Shown piece by piece: positions 6,201 to 12,359 of a DNA stretch of 18,194 bases; positions within the stretch are counted from its first letter, which is position 1, and each line of letters begins with the position of its first letter. The DNA is from a virus (Duplodnaviria > Heunggongvirae > Uroviricota > Caudoviricetes), in the IMG/VR virus record IMGVR_UViG_3300029107_000044, positions 1-18,194 of that record. One strand, 5' to 3'. The position numbers and the translations under genes were made by a program. Below the pieces are notes generated by a model that worked only from the letters and a program-made list of their open reading frames with translations, did not search any database and was not told the DNA's origin.

Positions 6201-6314
6201 GCTGACCTCATTTCCCCTTAACGCCGGGGTAGCGGAACTGTTTGCTGAGAACACCGTGCGGTGTCTTGATGGAAAATAATTTAGAATAACCTAACATGAG
6301 AGGCAAGTGTTTTT

Positions 6315-6332
6315 TGTTAGATTGATCTAACA
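6315..6332. promoter_or_regulatory. 18-bp palindromic operator TGTTAGA-N4-TCTAACA upstream of the ydfA-dicF operon (putative DicA operator at the dicB-operon promoter)
   Basis: Perfect inverted repeat TGTTAGATTGATCTAACA between the dicA stop and the ydfA start. A second copy with identical arms lies at 6826-6843. Confidence 0.55.
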
Positions 6333-6368
6333 AAAAGGGTGGGCGCAACTAATCACTTGAAAAGAATG

Positions 6369-6776
6369 TTATTTTATTGATTTATTTTTACGCGCTTTAA
6401 GCATTTCTTCGAAGAGTTTGTTGAAGTTTTCTACTCTTGCGCGCATTTCAGACAGCAAGGCTTCCTGCTCGGAAGATGGAAGAGCATCGAATAATTCGAT
6501 CAATTCTTTGTGGTTGGGAGTTAGCTCTGTTTCCACATGAAGTTCTTGTGCAGGCACTGGTGCCTTGTCTTCGTCACCAAACATTAGCCATGTAGGTGAG
6601 CACTTCAGAGCATCCGCTAAAGCAAACAATCGTTTTCCGACTGGCTGGGTTTCGTCTCTTTCCCATTGTGAAATTGTGACGTGAGCAACTCCAGCGAGGC
6701 GCGCGGCTTCTCGTTGTGTTAAGCGTAATTCTTTTCGTCGCGCCAGAACTCGCTGGCCCAGGGTTCTTGTATCCAT
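6369..6776 (-). CDS. dicA: DicA-like HTH (XRE-family) repressor
   Basis: 135-aa ORF with an N-terminal XRE-type helix-turn-helix (LRLTQREAARLAGVAHVTISQWE) and no S24 peptidase domain. Length and divergent arrangement with a cro-like gene match K-12 dicA (135 aa). Confidence 0.8.
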   Translation of the reverse strand: MDTRTLGQRVLARRKELRLTQREAARLAGVAHVTISQWERDETQPVGKRLFALADALKCSPTWLMFGDEDKAPVPAQELHVETELTPNHKELIELFDALPSSEQEALLSEMRARVENFNKLFEEMLKARKNKSIK

Positions 6777-6798
6777 AGTTAGGTAATTCTAATTTTTC

Positions 6799-6843
6799 TT
6801 GACTTAGGTATCCCGCGCACAATAATGTTAGAAAAGTCTAACA
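6799..6843 (+). promoter_or_regulatory. divergent dicA/dicC control region: sigma-70 promoter (TTGACT-N17-ATAATG) overlapping an operator palindrome
   Basis: TTGACT at 6799-6804, 17-nt spacer, ATAATG at 6822-6827. Palindrome TGTTAGAAAAGTCTAACA at 6826-6843 overlaps the -10 and precedes the dicC RBS (GAGGGGG). Confidence 0.55.
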
Positions 6844-6856
6844 AGAGGGGGATTTG

Positions 6857-7084
6857 ATGCTTAAAGTTGACGCAATTACTTTTTTTGGCAGCAAAACAAA
6901 GCTTGCCAATGCCGCAGGAGTGAGGCTGGCAAGTGTTGCTGCTTGGGGGATACTGGTTCCTGAAGGTCGCGCGATGCGTCTACAGGAGGCATCTGGCGGG
7001 GAGCTTCAGTATGATCCCAAAGTTTATGATGAATATCGTAAGACGAAGCGGGCGGGGCGGTTGAACAATGAAAATCACTCCTGA
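6857..7084 (+). CDS. dicC: DicC/Cro-like small DNA-binding regulator (YdaS-like)
   Basis: 75-76-aa ORF divergent from dicA with a strong RBS. The track starts at TTG 6854; ATG 6857 is the likelier start. Length and position match K-12 dicC (76 aa). Confidence 0.65.
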   Translation: MLKVDAITFFGSKTKLANAAGVRLASVAAWGILVPEGRAMRLQEASGGELQYDPKVYDEYRKTKRAGRLNNENHS

Positions 7085-7589
7085 ACAGGCTCGTGAGGCT
7101 CTGGATGCCTGGATATGTCGACCAGGAATGACACAGGAGCAGGCGACGATATTAATCACTGAAGCATTCTGGGCTTTGAAAGAGCGCCCGAACATCGATG
7201 TTCAGCGTGTCACAGATGAAGGTGGCGCGGTTGATCAGCGAGCGCTTGGTGTTAATCGAGTGAAGATATTCGAACGCTGGAAGGCTATCGACACCAGGGA
7301 TAAGCGTGAAAAGTTCACGGCGCTAGTGCCTGCGATTATGGAGGCTATCCGGATTAGTGATTTCAGGTTGTATCGTGAAATTACTGACGGAAAAAGCATC
7401 ACGTGCATGATCGCCGGGTTAAACAAAGAATATGGCGATGTGGTGGAGTCCGGACTGCTTTTTGCTGATCCTGCCGTAGTGGATCGTGAAACTGACGAAC
7501 TTATAGAAAAAGCAATTGCTTTCAAGCTTGCGTATCGACAGCAATACCAACAAAAAGCTGGATGGAATTATGAGCCTTCTTTTTGCTGA
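7068..7589 (+). CDS. YdaT-like protein (CII-position regulator/toxin-domain family)
   Basis: 173-aa ORF overlapping the dicC end. Segment KIFERWKAIDTRDKREKFTALVPAIMEAI resembles the Rac YdaT sequence as I recall it. Confidence 0.55.
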   Translation: MKITPEQAREALDAWICRPGMTQEQATILITEAFWALKERPNIDVQRVTDEGGAVDQRALGVNRVKIFERWKAIDTRDKREKFTALVPAIMEAIRISDFRLYREITDGKSITCMIAGLNKEYGDVVESGLLFADPAVVDRETDELIEKAIAFKLAYRQQYQQKAGWNYEPSFC

Positions 7590-8535
7590 ACGCCCACTGG
7601 TTATAAACACGCAGCTGGCAATGAAAATTGGCTTAAACGAAGCCATTGTTTTGCAACAACTGCACTACTGGTTGAGAGATACCAACTCCGGCATGGAATG
7701 TGATGGTGTTCGCTGGATTTATAACACAACGGAACAATGGCTGGAACAGTTCCCATTCTGGTCAGAGTCAACGTTAAAGCGCGCGTTTGCAAGTCTGAAA
7801 ACGCTGGGGCTTTTGCGTTGTGAAAAGCTCAATAAATCAAAGCGCGATATGACCAATTTCTACACGATCAACTATGGGAGCGAGCTTTTAGATGGTGGCA
7901 AATTGAGCGAATCCATCGGTTCAAAATGCGCCGCTCCATCAGGTCAAAATGACACGATGGAAGAGGTCAAAATGAAACGCTCCATTGATTCAAAACGACC
8001 CAATGTCATCGGGTCAAAATGGCCTGATGATCTTACAGAGAATACAACAGAGATTACTACAGAGAATAAAAACACTTTTCGTCCGGAAGCTTCGCAACCG
8101 GACCCGCAGACGACTGAACAGGATTTTTTAACCCGGAACTCCGACGCGGTTGTGTTTAGTGCGAAAAAACGCCAGTGGGGTAGCAGGGAGGATTTGGCGT
8201 GTGCGCAGTGGATCTGGGGGCGGATCGTGGGTCTCTACGAACAGGCAGCCAGTGATGATGGCGAGATCATGCGACCAAAAGAGCCTAACTGGACTGCCTG
8301 GGCCAATGACGTGCGCACAATGCGGATGCTGGATGGCAGAAGCCACAGACAAATTTGCGAAATGTTTGGTCGGGTTCAGCGAGATCCATTCTGGGTAAAA
8401 AACATCATGAGCCCGTCAAAGCTCCGCGAAAAATGGGACGAACTGGTCATCCGCCTGGGACGTTCACCTGTACAGCGTTGTGTTAATCATATTTCTGAAC
8501 CGGATACAGAAATTCCGCCTGGTTTCAGAGGATAA
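7570..8535 (+). CDS. phage replication initiation protein (O-like replisome organiser with DnaT-like C-terminal domain)
   Basis: ATG 7570 is preceded by an RBS; the track ORF starts in-frame at 7516 inside the upstream gene. N-terminal HTH-like region, central repeat-containing linker that carries iterons in the DNA, C-terminal DnaT-like region (judged by eye). Confidence 0.7.
   Translation: MSLLFAERPLVINTQLAMKIGLNEAIVLQQLHYWLRDTNSGMECDGVRWIYNTTEQWLEQFPFWSESTLKRAFASLKTLGLLRCEKLNKSKRDMTNFYTINYGSELLDGGKLSESIGSKCAAPSGQNDTMEEVKMKRSIDSKRPNVIGSKWPDDLTENTTEITTENKNTFRPEASQPDPQTTEQDFLTRNSDAVVFSAKKRQWGSREDLACAQWIWGRIVGLYEQAASDDGEIMRPKEPNWTAWANDVRTMRMLDGRSHRQICEMFGRVQRDPFWVKNIMSPSKLREKWDELVIRLGRSPVQRCVNHISEPDTEIPPGFRG
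7918..8021 (+). repeat. putative replication origin: five direct iterons (GGTCAAAATG core) at ~23-bp spacing inside the initiator gene
   Basis: Repeats at 7918, 7941, 7964, 7988 (degenerate) and 8011, followed by an A-rich stretch at 8022-8090. Layout is analogous to lambda ori within gene O. Confidence 0.6.
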
Positions 8536-8575
8536 GTGTTGATTTCAGGTCATGAGGTAATTTTAAGGGGGACTT

Positions 8576-8998
8576 GTGGCAAAAGTTTTTACACAAGAAG
8601 AGCGGGAAAAAATTAAATGGCAGGTGGTGGAACTCGTGCGCCAGAGCGGCCGTGAGACGTTACGGCAACTGGAAGCTAAAACAGGTGCGACTAGATATCT
8701 GATGAGCGTTCTTGCCAGAGAGCTGGTAGCCAGTGGCGATGTATACAACTCCGGCTACGGGTTATTCCCCTCTGAACAGGCGCGTAAGGACTGGCAAAAC
8801 GCCCGCAAAAAACTCTCGAGGGCAAAGGTGAAGAAACCTGCTGTGGTTGATCCGGACCTTATCTGGTCATCACCTGACGGAGAAATACGTCGCTACGACA
8901 GTCGCCTAAACATAATCTGTCGCGAGTGCCGGAAGAGCGAAGTTATGCAGCGCATACTGGCTTTCTATCAGGGTAATTTTCAGGACGTGGCGCAGTGA
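8576..8998 (+). CDS. hypothetical protein, translationally coupled to the downstream methyltransferase ORF
   Basis: 140-aa ORF with GTG start and an AAGGGGG RBS 6 nt upstream. Its stop overlaps the next start in GTGA (8995-8998). No recognised family. Confidence 0.5.
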   Translation: MAKVFTQEEREKIKWQVVELVRQSGRETLRQLEAKTGATRYLMSVLARELVASGDVYNSGYGLFPSEQARKDWQNARKKLSRAKVKKPAVVDPDLIWSSPDGEIRRYDSRLNIICRECRKSEVMQRILAFYQGNFQDVAQ

Positions 8999-9351
8999 GT
9001 GCACCGGCAACCATTCTTGATATGTGCTGTGGCAGCCGCATGTTCTGGTTCGATAAGTCTGACGAACGGGCGATATTTAGCGATATCAGAAAAGAAGGAT
9101 ACACATTACGCAATGGGAGACGCTTGATTATCAGCCCTGACATTATCGCAGATTTTCGTGCATTATCATTTGCAGACGCATCTTTTTCGATGGTTGTATT
9201 AGACCCTCCGCATCTTGAGCGTGTTGGTGATAACGCCTGGATGGGAAAGAAATATGGACGGCTGAATAAAGATGCCTGGCGTGATGATTTGCGACAGAGA
9301 TTTAAAGAAGCTTTTCGGGTGTTGAGGCCGCACGGCGTTCTGATTTTTTAA
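8995..9351 (+). CDS. DNA methyltransferase, truncated (N6-adenine/N4-cytosine type; AdoMet motif I and DPPH catalytic motif present, target-recognition region absent)
   Basis: 118-aa ORF with motif I-like ILDMCCGSRMF, an acidic residue after the next strand (IFSDIR) and motif IV VVLDPPHL. It ends at a TAA after ...RPHGVLIF; the same frame continues past the stop (WNETQIPVSQILALTDRKPV...) and about 1 kb downstream has no long ORF. Confidence 0.5.
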   Translation: MSAPATILDMCCGSRMFWFDKSDERAIFSDIRKEGYTLRNGRRLIISPDIIADFRALSFADASFSMVVLDPPHLERVGDNAWMGKKYGRLNKDAWRDDLRQRFKEAFRVLRPHGVLIF

Positions 9352-9961
9352 TGGAATGAAACGCAAATACCGGTAAGCCAGATTCTGGCACTGACAGATA
9401 GAAAGCCTGTTATCTGTCAACGAACAGGGAAAAAACGATAAAACCCACTGGATTATTTTTATGAAAGAGGCATCCAGTGAGTAGATTCGTAAGGTTACAG
9501 ATACGTATATCTGAATAATTAAATTCAGTTCTGTAAATAAAACTTAATCCTTAACCGGATGGATTTCTGCACCCTCAGAACATCAGGAGGCCGCCCGAAA
9601 GGGCGGTAGTGAAATGCGAAAGTTCAAAATTATTATTGAAACGGGAATAGCTGGTGGAGATTTTGAGGATGTATTCGAAGTGGACGATGACGCAACACCT
9701 GATGAAATTCATGACGGAGCATAAGAAATTTTCTTTAACTACTGCAATTACTCATACCACGAAATAAAAGACGATGAGGAAGAACAAAGTGGCTGATTTT
9801 TGTTCAGCTAAATATAACATCAGTTTTGAAGAGCGGGATGAACTATTAATGGACTATGGTGAGTTACGCGGTGGAAGTGCTGCTGATGTCGAATCCTAGC
9901 GTGATGACTATGAAGCGGGAAAAACTCCGGTCGAAGCATATTGTGATGAGTGGGGCGATGA

Positions 9962-10249
9962 ATGAGCGAGATTAATTATCAGGAAGGGCATGAAACGGCG
10001 GGGCAAGCAAAACCAGTGACATGGCGATATCGCTACGTGAAAAAAGGCGTTACGGACTTTCAGGGGAAGTAGTGGTCTGGTGACTGGAAATATGTACCGA
10101 AAAAAGAGGATTGTAACGACAGGCCGAACTATCAAATTCAGGCCTTATTCACTGCCTCACCAGTCCCGGTTACATCAGAAGAATTGGTTAAAGCTGTGCA
10201 CTTTTATGAACAACTAAAACGCGAAAATCCACCAACATCCGGCAACTAG
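9962..10249 (+). pseudogene. possible nonsense-disrupted ORF (96 codons with one in-frame amber at 10070-10072)
   Basis: Hand translation: MSEINYQEGHETAGQAKPVTWRYRYVKKGVTDFQGK, then TAG, then WSGDWKYVPKKEDCNDRPNYQIQALFTASPVPVTSEELVKAVHFYEQLKRENPPTSGN. Could be coincidental. Confidence 0.3.
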
Positions 10250-10503
10250 ATTAATGGGTTAACTATGTCGGTTAAACGACCAGCCAACTGAAAAAGCGGA
10301 AACCTGATTACAGGTTGCCAGATAAGGCAATGAGCTACCTGGCGCGGAACGGACTGATAAGTATGGGGAATGTTTTACGATGAACCTTTAGACTAAAGAG
10401 TTTGTAACGCTATGTAAGTGATTTTTTCTGGTTTAGATATTTATATGTCCGGCCAAATTGAGGTGTGTTTAAATGTAATTGCACATTGATTGTAGGAGGA
10501 ATA

Positions 10504-10683
10504 ATGAAAAACGCATTGCAGTTTTTGTTTGTTGCGTTCTGGTTGTTCGCATCATGTATGCCCATCATCTTCACAGCAAGGTATATGGAAAAAGTTGATG
10601 TTTTGATATTAATATTTGGATATATAAATGCCCTTTTTTTAGGGGTGTTCATGGCGGTCATGTGCATTGAATACTGGCGGTAA
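10504..10683 (+). CDS. small hydrophobic membrane protein (59 aa, about two transmembrane helices) in an AT-rich island
   Basis: Strong RBS (AGGAGGAATA) before ATG 10504; the track ORF starts upstream at 10465. Sequence MKNALQFLFVAFWLFASCMPIIFTARYMEKVDVLILIFGYINALFLGVFMAVMCIEYWR. Confidence 0.45.
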   Translation: MKNALQFLFVAFWLFASCMPIIFTARYMEKVDVLILIFGYINALFLGVFMAVMCIEYWR

Positions 10684-11017
10684 ATACAGCGAACTCCATT
10701 GGTTTAGTTGGATATTTACTGTGCTGGACAAAAACGGTTTGCGGGGAAATCTTAGTTAAGTAGAATGACTGCGGGTGCTTGAGGCTATCTGCCTCGGGCA
10801 CGAACACCAACGGCAGGTAGAGAAAAGCCCCAGTTAACATTACGCGTCCTGCAAGACGCTTAACATTAATCTGAGGCCAATTTCATGCCAGACACATGTA
10901 GGTTAGCCTCTTACGTGCCGAAAGGCAAGGAGAAGCAGGCTATTGTTAACACCAAGCTGTAATGTCCCCTTTGAACCATTCTAAAATGTCCCCAGACAAT
11001 TCTCTGGGGGATTTTTC

Positions 11018-11389
11018 ATGACCAAAGAAACTGTTACGATGAGTCATAAGGAACTCCACCGACTTCAGATTATTCAGGAGTCAATTAATCGACATATTAC
11101 TCAGGAACAAGCTGCGGCACGCATTGGCATTTCTATTCGGCAGGTTAAACGTCTGGTGCAACGGTATAGAAATGAAGGGCCTTCTGGTCTGGTTTCCCAC
11201 CGACGTGGAAAGCGTCCTAATAATTCCTTTTCTACTGAATTCAGAGCAACAGTAATTTTACTCCTCAAAGGCCGTTACGCTGATTTTGGACCTACGTTTG
11301 CGTGCGAAAAATTGCGCGAGATACACGGTTTATCTTTATCCGTTGAAACTCTCAGAAAGTGGATGATAGAAGAGGGGGGTATGGCGTGA
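11018..11389 (+). CDS. transposase N-terminal part (HTH domain; orfA or upstream fragment of a frameshifted gene)
   Basis: 123-aa ORF with a helix-turn-helix (ITQEQAAARIGISIRQVKRLVQRY). It ends just after a G6 homopolymer (GAGGGGGGT); the +1 frame continues in-frame into the downstream ORF (..GVWRERRRKIARIYQRRMRRPSYGELIQ..). Confidence 0.7.
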   Translation: MTKETVTMSHKELHRLQIIQESINRHITQEQAAARIGISIRQVKRLVQRYRNEGPSGLVSHRRGKRPNNSFSTEFRATVILLLKGRYADFGPTFACEKLREIHGLSLSVETLRKWMIEEGGMA

Positions 11390-11426
11390 ACGCCGTCGTA
11401 AAATTGCCCGTATATATCAACGCCGC

Positions 11427-12359
11427 ATGCGACGACCATCTTACGGTGAACTGATCCAGATTGATGGCTCACCTCATGACTGGTTTGAAAATCGAGGCCC
11501 CAGATGTACACTGATCGTTTTCATTGATGATGCCACCAGTGCGTTGATGGCGTTGCGTTTTGTGCCTGCTGAAACAACCCGGGCTTACATGGAAACCCTC
11601 CGGGGTTACCTTAATGATCATGGCGTACCGCTCGCTCTCTACTCTGATAGACACAGTATATTCAGGGTAAATAACCCAGAGCGGGAAGGTGAGCTGACCC
11701 AGTTCACTCGTGCGATAAAGACACTGGGCATCGAGCCAATCCATGCCAACAGCCCGCAGGCAAAAGGGCGGGTAGAGCGCGCCAATCAGACACTACAGGA
11801 CAGGCTGGTCAAAGAAATGCGGCTTCAGAATATCAGTGATATTGAAACAGCAAATGCATGGTTGCCGACCTTTATTGAAGCCTATAACAACCGGTTCGCT
11901 ACGTCGCCTCGTACTACTGATAATGCTCATCTTGATGTGCACCATTCTGAAGAGGAACTGGGTTATATCTTCAGCCTACAGGCGAAGCGCGTTCTGTCTA
12001 AAAATCTCACTTTCCAGTACAAAAGCAGTGCGTTTCAGGTACGCAGTGAGGGCCGGGGATATCGACTTAGGCATTCGGTTGTTACTGTATGCGAGAACTT
12101 TGACGGTGAAATTAACGTTCTGTATGACGGGAAAGCGCTGGGCTGGGAAAAGTATGTTGATGGCCCGGAGCCTATACCACTGGATGATGAAAAGAGTGTC
12201 CATGAACGAGTGGATAATGCCCGTATTGATTTACGCTCAAAATACTATGTTAAACCTAAAGCTGACCATCCCTGGCTTACGCGCCGAACGCAAAGTCATC
12301 AGCAAGTTAAGCCCCCGAAGTTACCTAAAAAGAAGCCTGATCCCGATAAAAAAGATTGA
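11427..12359 (+). CDS. transposase C-terminal part (DDE integrase-core / rve domain)
   Basis: 310-aa ORF with rve-type motifs (IQIDGSPHDW, LYSDRHSIF, KGRVERANQTLQDRL) and a lysine-rich C-terminus. Confidence 0.75.
   Translation: MRRPSYGELIQIDGSPHDWFENRGPRCTLIVFIDDATSALMALRFVPAETTRAYMETLRGYLNDHGVPLALYSDRHSIFRVNNPEREGELTQFTRAIKTLGIEPIHANSPQAKGRVERANQTLQDRLVKEMRLQNISDIETANAWLPTFIEAYNNRFATSPRTTDNAHLDVHHSEEELGYIFSLQAKRVLSKNLTFQYKSSAFQVRSEGRGYRLRHSVVTVCENFDGEINVLYDGKALGWEKYVDGPEPIPLDDEKSVHERVDNARIDLRSKYYVKPKADHPWLTRRTQSHQQVKPPKLPKKKPDPDKKD

Follow-up and report, generated by a model that had tools for sequence, protein, structure and literature searches.

An initiator gene with a probable internal origin of the lambda type

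The DNA considered here, to which we refer as the window, is the whole 18,194-bp stretch of IMG/VR record IMGVR_UViG_3300029107_000044, and represents a lambdoid prophage at the Qin/CP-933O site of E. coli. Our analysis centers on a gene on its plus strand (7570-8535; ATG at 7570, stop codon at 8533-8535), the 321-amino acid translation of which is that of a replication initiator, and on how such an initiator, followed by no recognizable loader gene, may recruit the replicative helicase. The protein, whose homologs share a start of the form MSLL..., matches PHROG 391 ("replication initiation O-like") at E 8.6e-92, and belongs to no Pfam family, even at E ≤ 10, and to no NCBIfam family. Identical copies of its intact open reading frame (ORF) are present on at least 1000 contigs, where it is mostly labelled "hypothetical protein". 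The initiator consists of a winged-helix N-terminal domain, a linker encoded by the origin, a C-terminal domain of the lambda O type and a tail of the type that ends E. coli DnaT.

Six 23-bp iterons, with the core GGTCAAAATG and a partial CATC...GATG dyad symmetry, occupy positions 7891-8029 of the plus strand. Four of the units are clear (7914-7936, 7937-7959, 7960-7982 and 8007-8029), one is weak (7983-8005, with the copy GATTCAAAACG at ~7988) and one is degenerate (7891-7913, with the copy GGCAAATTGA at ~7896); the spacings between them are 23, 23, 23, 23, and 24 bp. The units are partly palindromic, as exemplified by CATCAGGTCAAAATGACACGATG at 7937-7959. The pattern GKTCAAAAYG has exactly four matches in the window, all on the plus strand (at 7919, 7942, 7965, and 8012), compared with a mean of 0.22 in shuffled sequence, where none of 200 shuffles reached four. 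An earlier note on this DNA had described five repeats of this core with a period of about 23 bp between 7918 and 8021. Both the pattern count and the spacing confirm that description, and there is a possible sixth copy upstream. Since a period of 23 nt places successive cores in three reading frames (GGT TCA AAA; GGT CAA AAT; GAG GTC AAA ATG), with the copies encoding GSK, GQN, VKM, DSK, and GSK, the array is not a repeat at the level of the protein.

Several E. coli contigs carry 290-amino acid alleles (proteins P0015, P0017, P0018, P0020, and P0021) with an in-frame deletion of 31 amino acids (93 nt) in the 7914-8006 region, in which the first and last iterons are fused and the array has collapsed. 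The deletion looks like the product of recombination between iterons, and the origin of these alleles is probably crippled.

The iterons are followed by an A-rich region (8030-8079, plus strand; GC content 0.33, positive AT skew), just as the earlier note had stated, which is a candidate DNA-unwinding element. It contains 2.8 copies of a 12-mer, ACAGAGAATACA, at 8035-8068 on the plus strand (Tandem Repeats Finder), and the sequence CAGAGANTAC occurs twice against an expectation of 0.10. A 12-nt period equals four codons, and the peptide is therefore repeated too (TENT/TEIT/TENK). Immediately to the right of the A-rich region, we read from the sequence an inverted repeat, GTCCGG-N11-CCGGAC (8081-8103), with an AAGCTT palindrome inside it. 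Its GTCCGG arm is kept in six of eight aligned loci, and its position is reminiscent of the palindrome to the right of the A/T-rich region of lambda. A cluster of DnaA boxes was not found at the origin; the 18 kb hold two matches, which is the level expected by chance. A lone DnaA-box-like TTTTACACA at 8587 is likewise at chance level. DnaA boxes were consequently rejected as an alternative route of recruitment.

We then compared synonymous sites with those of a Citrobacter homolog (~70% protein identity), taking third-position identity at codons for the same amino acid. This identity was 0.90 in the iterons and 1.00 in the A-rich repeats (0.90-1.00 overall for nt 7894-8073), compared with 0.56 for the N-terminal and 0.39 for the C-terminal domain. 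As judged from these alignments, selection is acting on the origin DNA itself, beyond its coding function. The iteron array is conserved in eight genera with the MSLL type of N-terminus, and in the same alignment CAGAGAnTACnnCAGAGAnTACnnCAGA is invariant regardless of the tail of the protein. A phased repeat array also lies at the same position of the gene in most of 84 loci that encode this family of C-terminal domain, where the sequence of the repeat tracks the type of N-terminal domain and not the tail. All MSLL initiators have a core resembling GGTCAAAATG (mostly TCAAAA) at a spacing of 23 or 46 bp, and the repeat of other N-terminal types is AATCGCGG or GAAACGTC with a 22-bp spacing, CCGAAAAC with a 21-bp spacing, or CCGCACAT with a spacing of 12/45 bp. 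Both the constraint at the DNA level and the covariation of repeat and N-terminal type support the proposal of the earlier note that an iteron-type origin resembling lambda ori lies within the initiator gene, and we consider it very probable that the gene at 7570-8535 holds such an origin.

The 12-mer repeat CAGAGAnTACnn (8035-8068) is itself invariant in the eight genera, a degree of conservation above that of the iterons. It could be a specific binding site, for single-stranded DNA (ssDNA) or a host factor, rather than a passive region of unwinding.

A lambda O-type domain with a DnaT-type tail

The N-terminal domain (7570-7893, plus strand; residues 1-108) is a predicted winged helix that presumably binds the iterons. 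Residues ~109-190, the part that encodes the origin, are predicted to be disordered, and are followed by a globular domain (8152-8460, plus strand; residues ~195-297) that belongs to the family of the lambda O C-terminal domain. Homology to this domain spans residues ~147-294 of the initiator (BLASTP E 1e-26; family hidden Markov model against lambda O, E 1e-38) and residues ~185-272 of lambda O. The N-terminus lacks PF04492 (Phage_rep_O) at E ≤ 10, and BLASTP found no similarity to residues 1-134 of lambda O. A full-length AlphaFold2 model built with seven close homologs was poor (predicted local distance difference test [pLDDT] 53), and a model of the domain only, built with 43 sequences, was usable.

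The last 20 residues (302-321; 8473-8532 on the plus strand), QRCVNHISEPDTEIPPGFRG, are identical to residues 160-179 of DnaT at 14 of 20 positions, and form the C-terminal end of both proteins. Positions 160-179 of the NCBIfam DnaT model match them at E 0.0056, a score far below the whole-protein cut-off. The tail, which we propose as a docking peptide for loaders of the DnaC class, is predicted to be disordered. Outside residues 302-321, the initiator has no similarity to DnaT; its three-helix-bundle ssDNA-binding domain (DnaT residues 84-153) was not detected in the initiator, nor were the Phd/YefM-like N-terminal oligomerization domain and the acidic PriB-binding linker of DnaT found there. 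The earlier note had regarded the C-terminal ~120 amino acids as DnaT-like, which holds for the last 20 residues, but not for the fold, since this matches lambda O.

In DnaT, the tail is described as flexible in one study (PMC5778457), and was not built in either cryo-electron microscopy (cryo-EM) model reported in another (PMC13377028); the passages on DnaT in these two papers state no function for it. The dnaT and dnaC genes lie in one operon, and the manner in which DnaT recruits DnaB-DnaC is described as unknown in two papers (PMC13377028; PMC11087952). A direct contact of DnaC with any restart protein has not been shown, yet the DnaC A84Y substitution specifically blocks the PriA/PriB pathway (PMC11087952).

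No loader gene follows the initiator

To look for a helicase loader, we searched the window (from int to Q) and the whole genome of the related phage HannyBb by phmmer with lambda P, two P-like references and two DnaC-like references. No P-like or DnaC-like ORF was found in either. A helicase gene is likewise missing from both the window between int and Q and the whole of HannyBb, and no DnaB-like gene comes after the initiator, in agreement with the earlier note, which had further asked whether a loader might be encoded elsewhere in the prophage. A genuine Walker-A NTPase ORF is likewise absent from the window, and the terminase is the only one in the complete 45-kb HannyBb genome. Because the Walker-A pattern GK[ST] misses the GKN of DnaC, the absence of DnaC rests on phmmer with the two DnaC-like references.

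The gene directly after the initiator, at the place where relatives have P or DnaC-like genes, encodes a small winged-helix protein of the DUF977/Ren-like type (8576-8998, plus strand; Pfam DUF977 E 5e-29; PHROG 142 "Ren-like"; weak phmmer match to lambda Ren). Its location is that of ren, and nothing occupies the place of P. When relatives that have a DnaC-like gene are compared with those that lack one, homology stops exactly at position 8535.

Where an initiator with the DnaT-type tail has no loader, the next gene usually encodes a small protein (DUF977, PerC-like, or DUF1627), in which a winged-helix-like segment at the N-terminus precedes a C-terminus that varies. Examples are found at loci L003, L010-L013 (147-164 amino acids), L016, L030, L032, L034 (128-267 amino acids), and L029 (140 amino acids). 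These proteins are unrelated in sequence but occupy the same position, as does ren in lambda.

The class of loader follows the class of tail

We next asked which loader genes accompany which tails in a set of 164 relatives, comprising the window, 83 genome loci and 80 viral loci, for which the 1.5 kb downstream of the initiator was classified. The search for genome loci was based on an 11-sequence subset of the alignment; the scan of viral contigs gave only relatives at ≥90% identity, and showed variants with a DnaC paralog. Tail and loader were compared at the 156 loci with ≥900 nt of downstream sequence, many of which are close relatives of one another. Proteins of this C-terminal domain family can be told apart by their short terminal tails, of which there are a few distinct types. 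The NTDW tail, which is that of lambda itself (...LTNTDWIYGVDL), is followed by a P-type loader at 11 of 11 loci, and the WNxxEAWE tail at 26 of 26, with no DnaC-like gene and no locus lacking both in either class; these P-type loaders match Pfam Phage_lambda_P. At none of the 96 loci with the DnaT-type tail (GFRG) is there a P-type loader: 37 have a DnaC-like gene, and 59 have neither. Similarly, the DYRAG tail of Duganella-group genomes is accompanied by a DnaC-like gene at four of five loci and by neither at the fifth, with no P-type loader. All nine loci with a long, ~75-amino acid tail have neither type. The remaining loci have GFRV/S (two loci) or unclassified (seven loci) tails. Because one and the same N-terminal cluster may come with various tails and loaders, shared ancestry of whole modules does not by itself account for the link between tail class and loader class. 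We found no description in the literature of such a link, or of a loader-less chimera of lambda O and a DnaT tail.

A close comparison is provided by sibling modules (IMG/VR loci L107, L123, L127, and 31 others, together with Enterobacter loci L017 and L018), the initiators of which share 91-93% DNA identity with that of the window, along with its iterons and its tail. They differ in that their own AAA+ loader of the DnaC class begins 4 nt after the initiator stop codon, whereas the window proceeds directly into DUF977. In L107, L123, and L127, the 91-93% identity extends from cro to exactly 8535, the tail is identical, and a DnaC paralog then takes the place of DUF977. The 4-nt interval recurs at nearly all viral loci that have a DnaC-like gene, and the DnaC paralog of L017 matches NCBIfam PRK12377 with a score of 433 bits and the DnaC equivalog model with one of 320 bits. 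The loader-less GFRG loci are all from Enterobacterales, except for two evidently mis-binned contigs of metagenome-assembled genomes (MAGs). According to PMC5109545, dnaC was domesticated from a phage and occurs only in Enterobacterales and a small number of other groups.

Loci L007 (MAG "Bacillota bacterium") and L009 (MAG "Veillonella parvula") carry the E. coli prophage module at 95% identity on contigs binned as Gram-positive, which is almost certainly binning contamination. In the long-tail class (L035-L038, L040, L042-L047, and L085), the same C-terminal domain bears an extension of ~75 amino acids ending in ...W(N/V)xIW...; its hosts are Sodalis, Acerihabitans, Edwardsiella, Morganella, Proteus, and Providencia. 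The class is another loader-less solution, and its extension may be a built-in adaptor.

Genetic context and distribution of the module

Upstream of the initiator lie a repressor gene (6369-6776, minus strand), cro (6854-7084, plus strand), and a cII-like gene, ydaT (7068-7589, plus strand), which overlaps the start of the initiator gene by 20 nt (7570-7589), and this suggests translational coupling. It follows from the arrangement of repressor, Cro, and cII-like genes at 6369-7589 that rightward transcription enters the origin. Positions 6300-9500 are 100% identical to NZ_CP027462, where the order of the locus is rspB, int, xis, exonuclease, dicB, ydfABC, repressor, cro, cII-like (YdaT), and the initiator gene, followed by DUF977, a frameshifted methyltransferase, pseudogenes, an insertion sequence (IS) element, relBE, hokD, DUF968, and the Q antiterminator. 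According to the RefSeq annotation of this identical locus, the region 3' of the replication module (8995-12359) has decayed, and contains a frameshifted S-adenosylmethionine (SAM) methyltransferase, two further pseudogenes and a truncated ISEsa1-family transposase.

The 3.2-kb stretch at 6300-9500 has a partial match in 4629 of 5426 complete E. coli genomes, with ≥80% of it present in 519. It is also present at 96-99% identity in three phage records, namely those of mEp460_ev081, PhiR42_1, and the E. coli phage HannyBb, whose 45-kb genome is complete; in mEp460_ev081 the initiator gene is annotated as "Primosomal protein I".

Proposed mechanism and alternative explanations

In the mechanism that we propose, the winged-helix N-terminal domain would bind the six phased 23-bp iterons (7891-8029), and the resulting complex would destabilize the adjoining A-rich 12-mer repeats (8030-8079). 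The lambda O-type domain and the disordered 20-residue tail would then bring in the replicative helicase. It is the C-terminal part of O that contacts P in lambda. The tail would be the element that specifies the class of loader, such that NTDW and WNxxEAWE pair with phage P and the DnaT-type tail pairs with loaders of the DnaC class; a phage with the latter tail could encode a DnaC paralog itself or, where the host possesses DnaC, do without one. An initiator from a phage without a DnaC paralog, as in the window, would thus most likely dock the host DnaB-DnaC directly at the opened origin. Taken as a whole, this account of a lambda-type origin module whose tail docks host DnaB-DnaC appears to us slightly favored. 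For the step at its center, the docking of a DnaC-class loader by the tail, we regard the probabilities on the two sides as level. The more general notion, that the ~20 residues common to DnaT and many phage initiators are a portable docking peptide for DnaC-class loaders, is a tentative suggestion.

Several observations weigh against this account. The co-occurrence of genes is the sole basis for the contact between tail and DnaC-class loader, and many of the 164 loci are close relatives, such that the counts overstate the number of independent events. Confidence in the structural models is low to moderate (pLDDT 53 and 74). The removal of residues 162-179 turns DnaT from a trimer into a dimer (PMC5778457), and the tail could therefore have a role in self-assembly. 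A 2026 paper on the preprimosome proposes the N-terminal domain of DnaT, and not the tail, as the recruiter (PMC13377028). Furthermore, the prophage has decayed downstream (the frameshifted methyltransferase and the IS element), and its own origin may never fire.

The earlier note had suggested a direct recruitment of the host primosome. In such a scheme, the tail would recruit the restart machinery rather than DnaC, and the initiator would replace or assist DnaT: PriA and/or PriB would dock to it where the A-rich region is unwound, and would then load DnaB-DnaC. PriA-dependent loading is used by other mobile elements, such as Mu and ColE1, and the tail is shared with DnaT, a partner of PriA and PriB, the C-terminal domain of which contacts PriA in the cryo-EM account (PMC13377028). 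However, the PriA and PriB contacts mapped there are in the three-helix domain and the acidic linker, both of which are absent from the initiator, and relatives with the same tail carry a DnaC paralog, but never a PriA- or PriB-like gene. As the DnaT-type tail pairs with DnaC-class loaders in these relatives, the likeliest host partner is DnaC or DnaB-DnaC, and not the PriA-PriB machinery; we therefore think that recruitment of the restart primosome is unlikely. We find it similarly improbable that the tail is an element for self-assembly or the handling of ssDNA, with the helicase arriving via DnaA, via transcription or R-loops, or via an unrecognized phage protein such as the DUF977 product. 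The dimeric state of the truncated DnaT (PMC5778457) would be in keeping with it, as would the small winged-helix proteins (DUF977, PerC-like, DUF1627) that usually follow loader-less initiators. It would nevertheless leave unexplained why tails and loader classes partition perfectly and independently of the N-terminal type, and the DnaA boxes are at chance level. Moreover, the small downstream genes are in the position of ren, and the DUF977 product itself weakly matches lambda Ren in phmmer. Ren is dispensable for the replication of lambda.

Might the missing loader instead reflect decay, with a cryptic prophage having lost its DnaC-like gene and the module being dead? The pseudogenes and IS element downstream would fit, as would the DnaC paralog found directly after the initiator in 37 of 96 relatives, but we regard this as very improbable. 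The three phage records (HannyBb, mEp460_ev081, and PhiR42_1) share the junction between initiator and DUF977 at 96-99% identity, at least 1000 contigs carry identical copies of the intact initiator ORF, and a boundary at the stop codon is that of a clean mosaic junction, not a deletion scar. Finally, although GSK/SK motifs recur in the peptide of the linker, the idea that the repeats are a repeated peptide or a product of chance, with no origin function, is effectively refuted: 23 nt is not a multiple of three and the cores fall in three frames, no shuffle reached the observed count, synonymous sites are conserved, and the sequence of the repeat covaries with the type of DNA-binding domain. 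The earlier note had named a mere protein-level repeat as grounds for abandoning the origin, and this has been ruled out.

Comparison with known systems

The likeness to lambda is extensive. The initiator gene contains the origin in both cases, at a matching offset (iterons at nt 349-433 of O, and at nt 322-460 counted from the ATG at 7570), and the origin consists of phased, partly palindromic iterons followed by an A/T-rich region; the gene is situated between cro and cII on one side and a ren-like gene on the other, and the C-terminal domains are homologous (E 1e-26). Unlike lambda O, however, the initiator has an N-terminal DNA-binding domain that is unrelated in sequence. There are six iterons of 23 bp here compared with four of ~19 bp in lambda, there is no P gene, and the lambda O tail, ...LDLTNTDWIYGVDL, is replaced by one of the DnaT type. 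Lambda-type origins are classical, and the origin described here, its different DNA-binding domain aside, conforms to what textbooks say of lambda.

The similarity to E. coli DnaT (primosomal protein I) is confined to the last 20 residues, at the C-terminus of each protein, where the identity is 70% (..R.VN..SEPD..IPPGFRG). Like DnaT, the initiator would act upstream of DnaB-DnaC loading; DnaT recognizes the structure of a fork, whereas the initiator is presumed to recognize a sequence, the iterons. The initiator of Salmonella phage SPN1S (L167, 35140-35955) ends in the same IPPGFRG tail, and no loader gene is annotated within 2.7 kb downstream of it. In that protein, however, the tail is attached to a DnaT three-helix domain (63% identity to DnaT residues 85-179) with another N-terminus, whereas in the window it is attached to a lambda O-type domain. 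Phages phiV10 and epsilon15, or epsilon15-like phages, also match the C-terminal half of DnaT plus its tail, and several of these proteins are annotated as "primosomal protein I". The PPompW prophage (L168, 7887-8927), which has dicA and dicC in common with the window, combines the DnaT three-helix domain with another tail (...ALDCTDWRDD). The combinations in SPN1S and PPompW show that tails reassort independently of globular domains.

DopC provides a precedent for chimeras of O and DnaT, as it has an O-like helix-turn-helix N-terminus and a DnaT C-terminal motif, but it is chromosomal, domesticated, without iterons and paired with the P-like DopE (Brezellec et al. 2017, PMC5509034). The RepA_N plasmid initiators (pSK41/pTZ2162 RepA, PDB 4pta) differ in having no sequence similarity to the initiator, in residing on Gram-positive plasmids and in having another C-terminal domain; the N-terminal model of the initiator is of moderate confidence.

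Implications

With at least 1000 contigs carrying the protein, mostly as "hypothetical protein", its annotation could be improved. The relatives point to a modular rule, whereby the N-terminal type sets the specificity for the iterons and the last ~15-30 residues track the class of loader; where a phage loader accompanies the DnaT-class tail at all, it is of the DnaC type. The proposed role of the tail bears on an open question of replication restart in E. coli, namely which part of DnaT contacts DnaB-DnaC. If the proposal is correct, the tail would be the missing link in the handover from the PriA-PriB-DnaT preprimosome to DnaB-DnaC, a step that papers from 2024 and 2026 call unknown. It would also explain how some lambdoid phages do without a loader gene, including the loader-less module present in many E. 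coli genomes. As a corollary, the chromosomal dnaT-dnaC pair would mirror, and may descend from, a phage module consisting of an initiator with a GFRG tail and DnaC.

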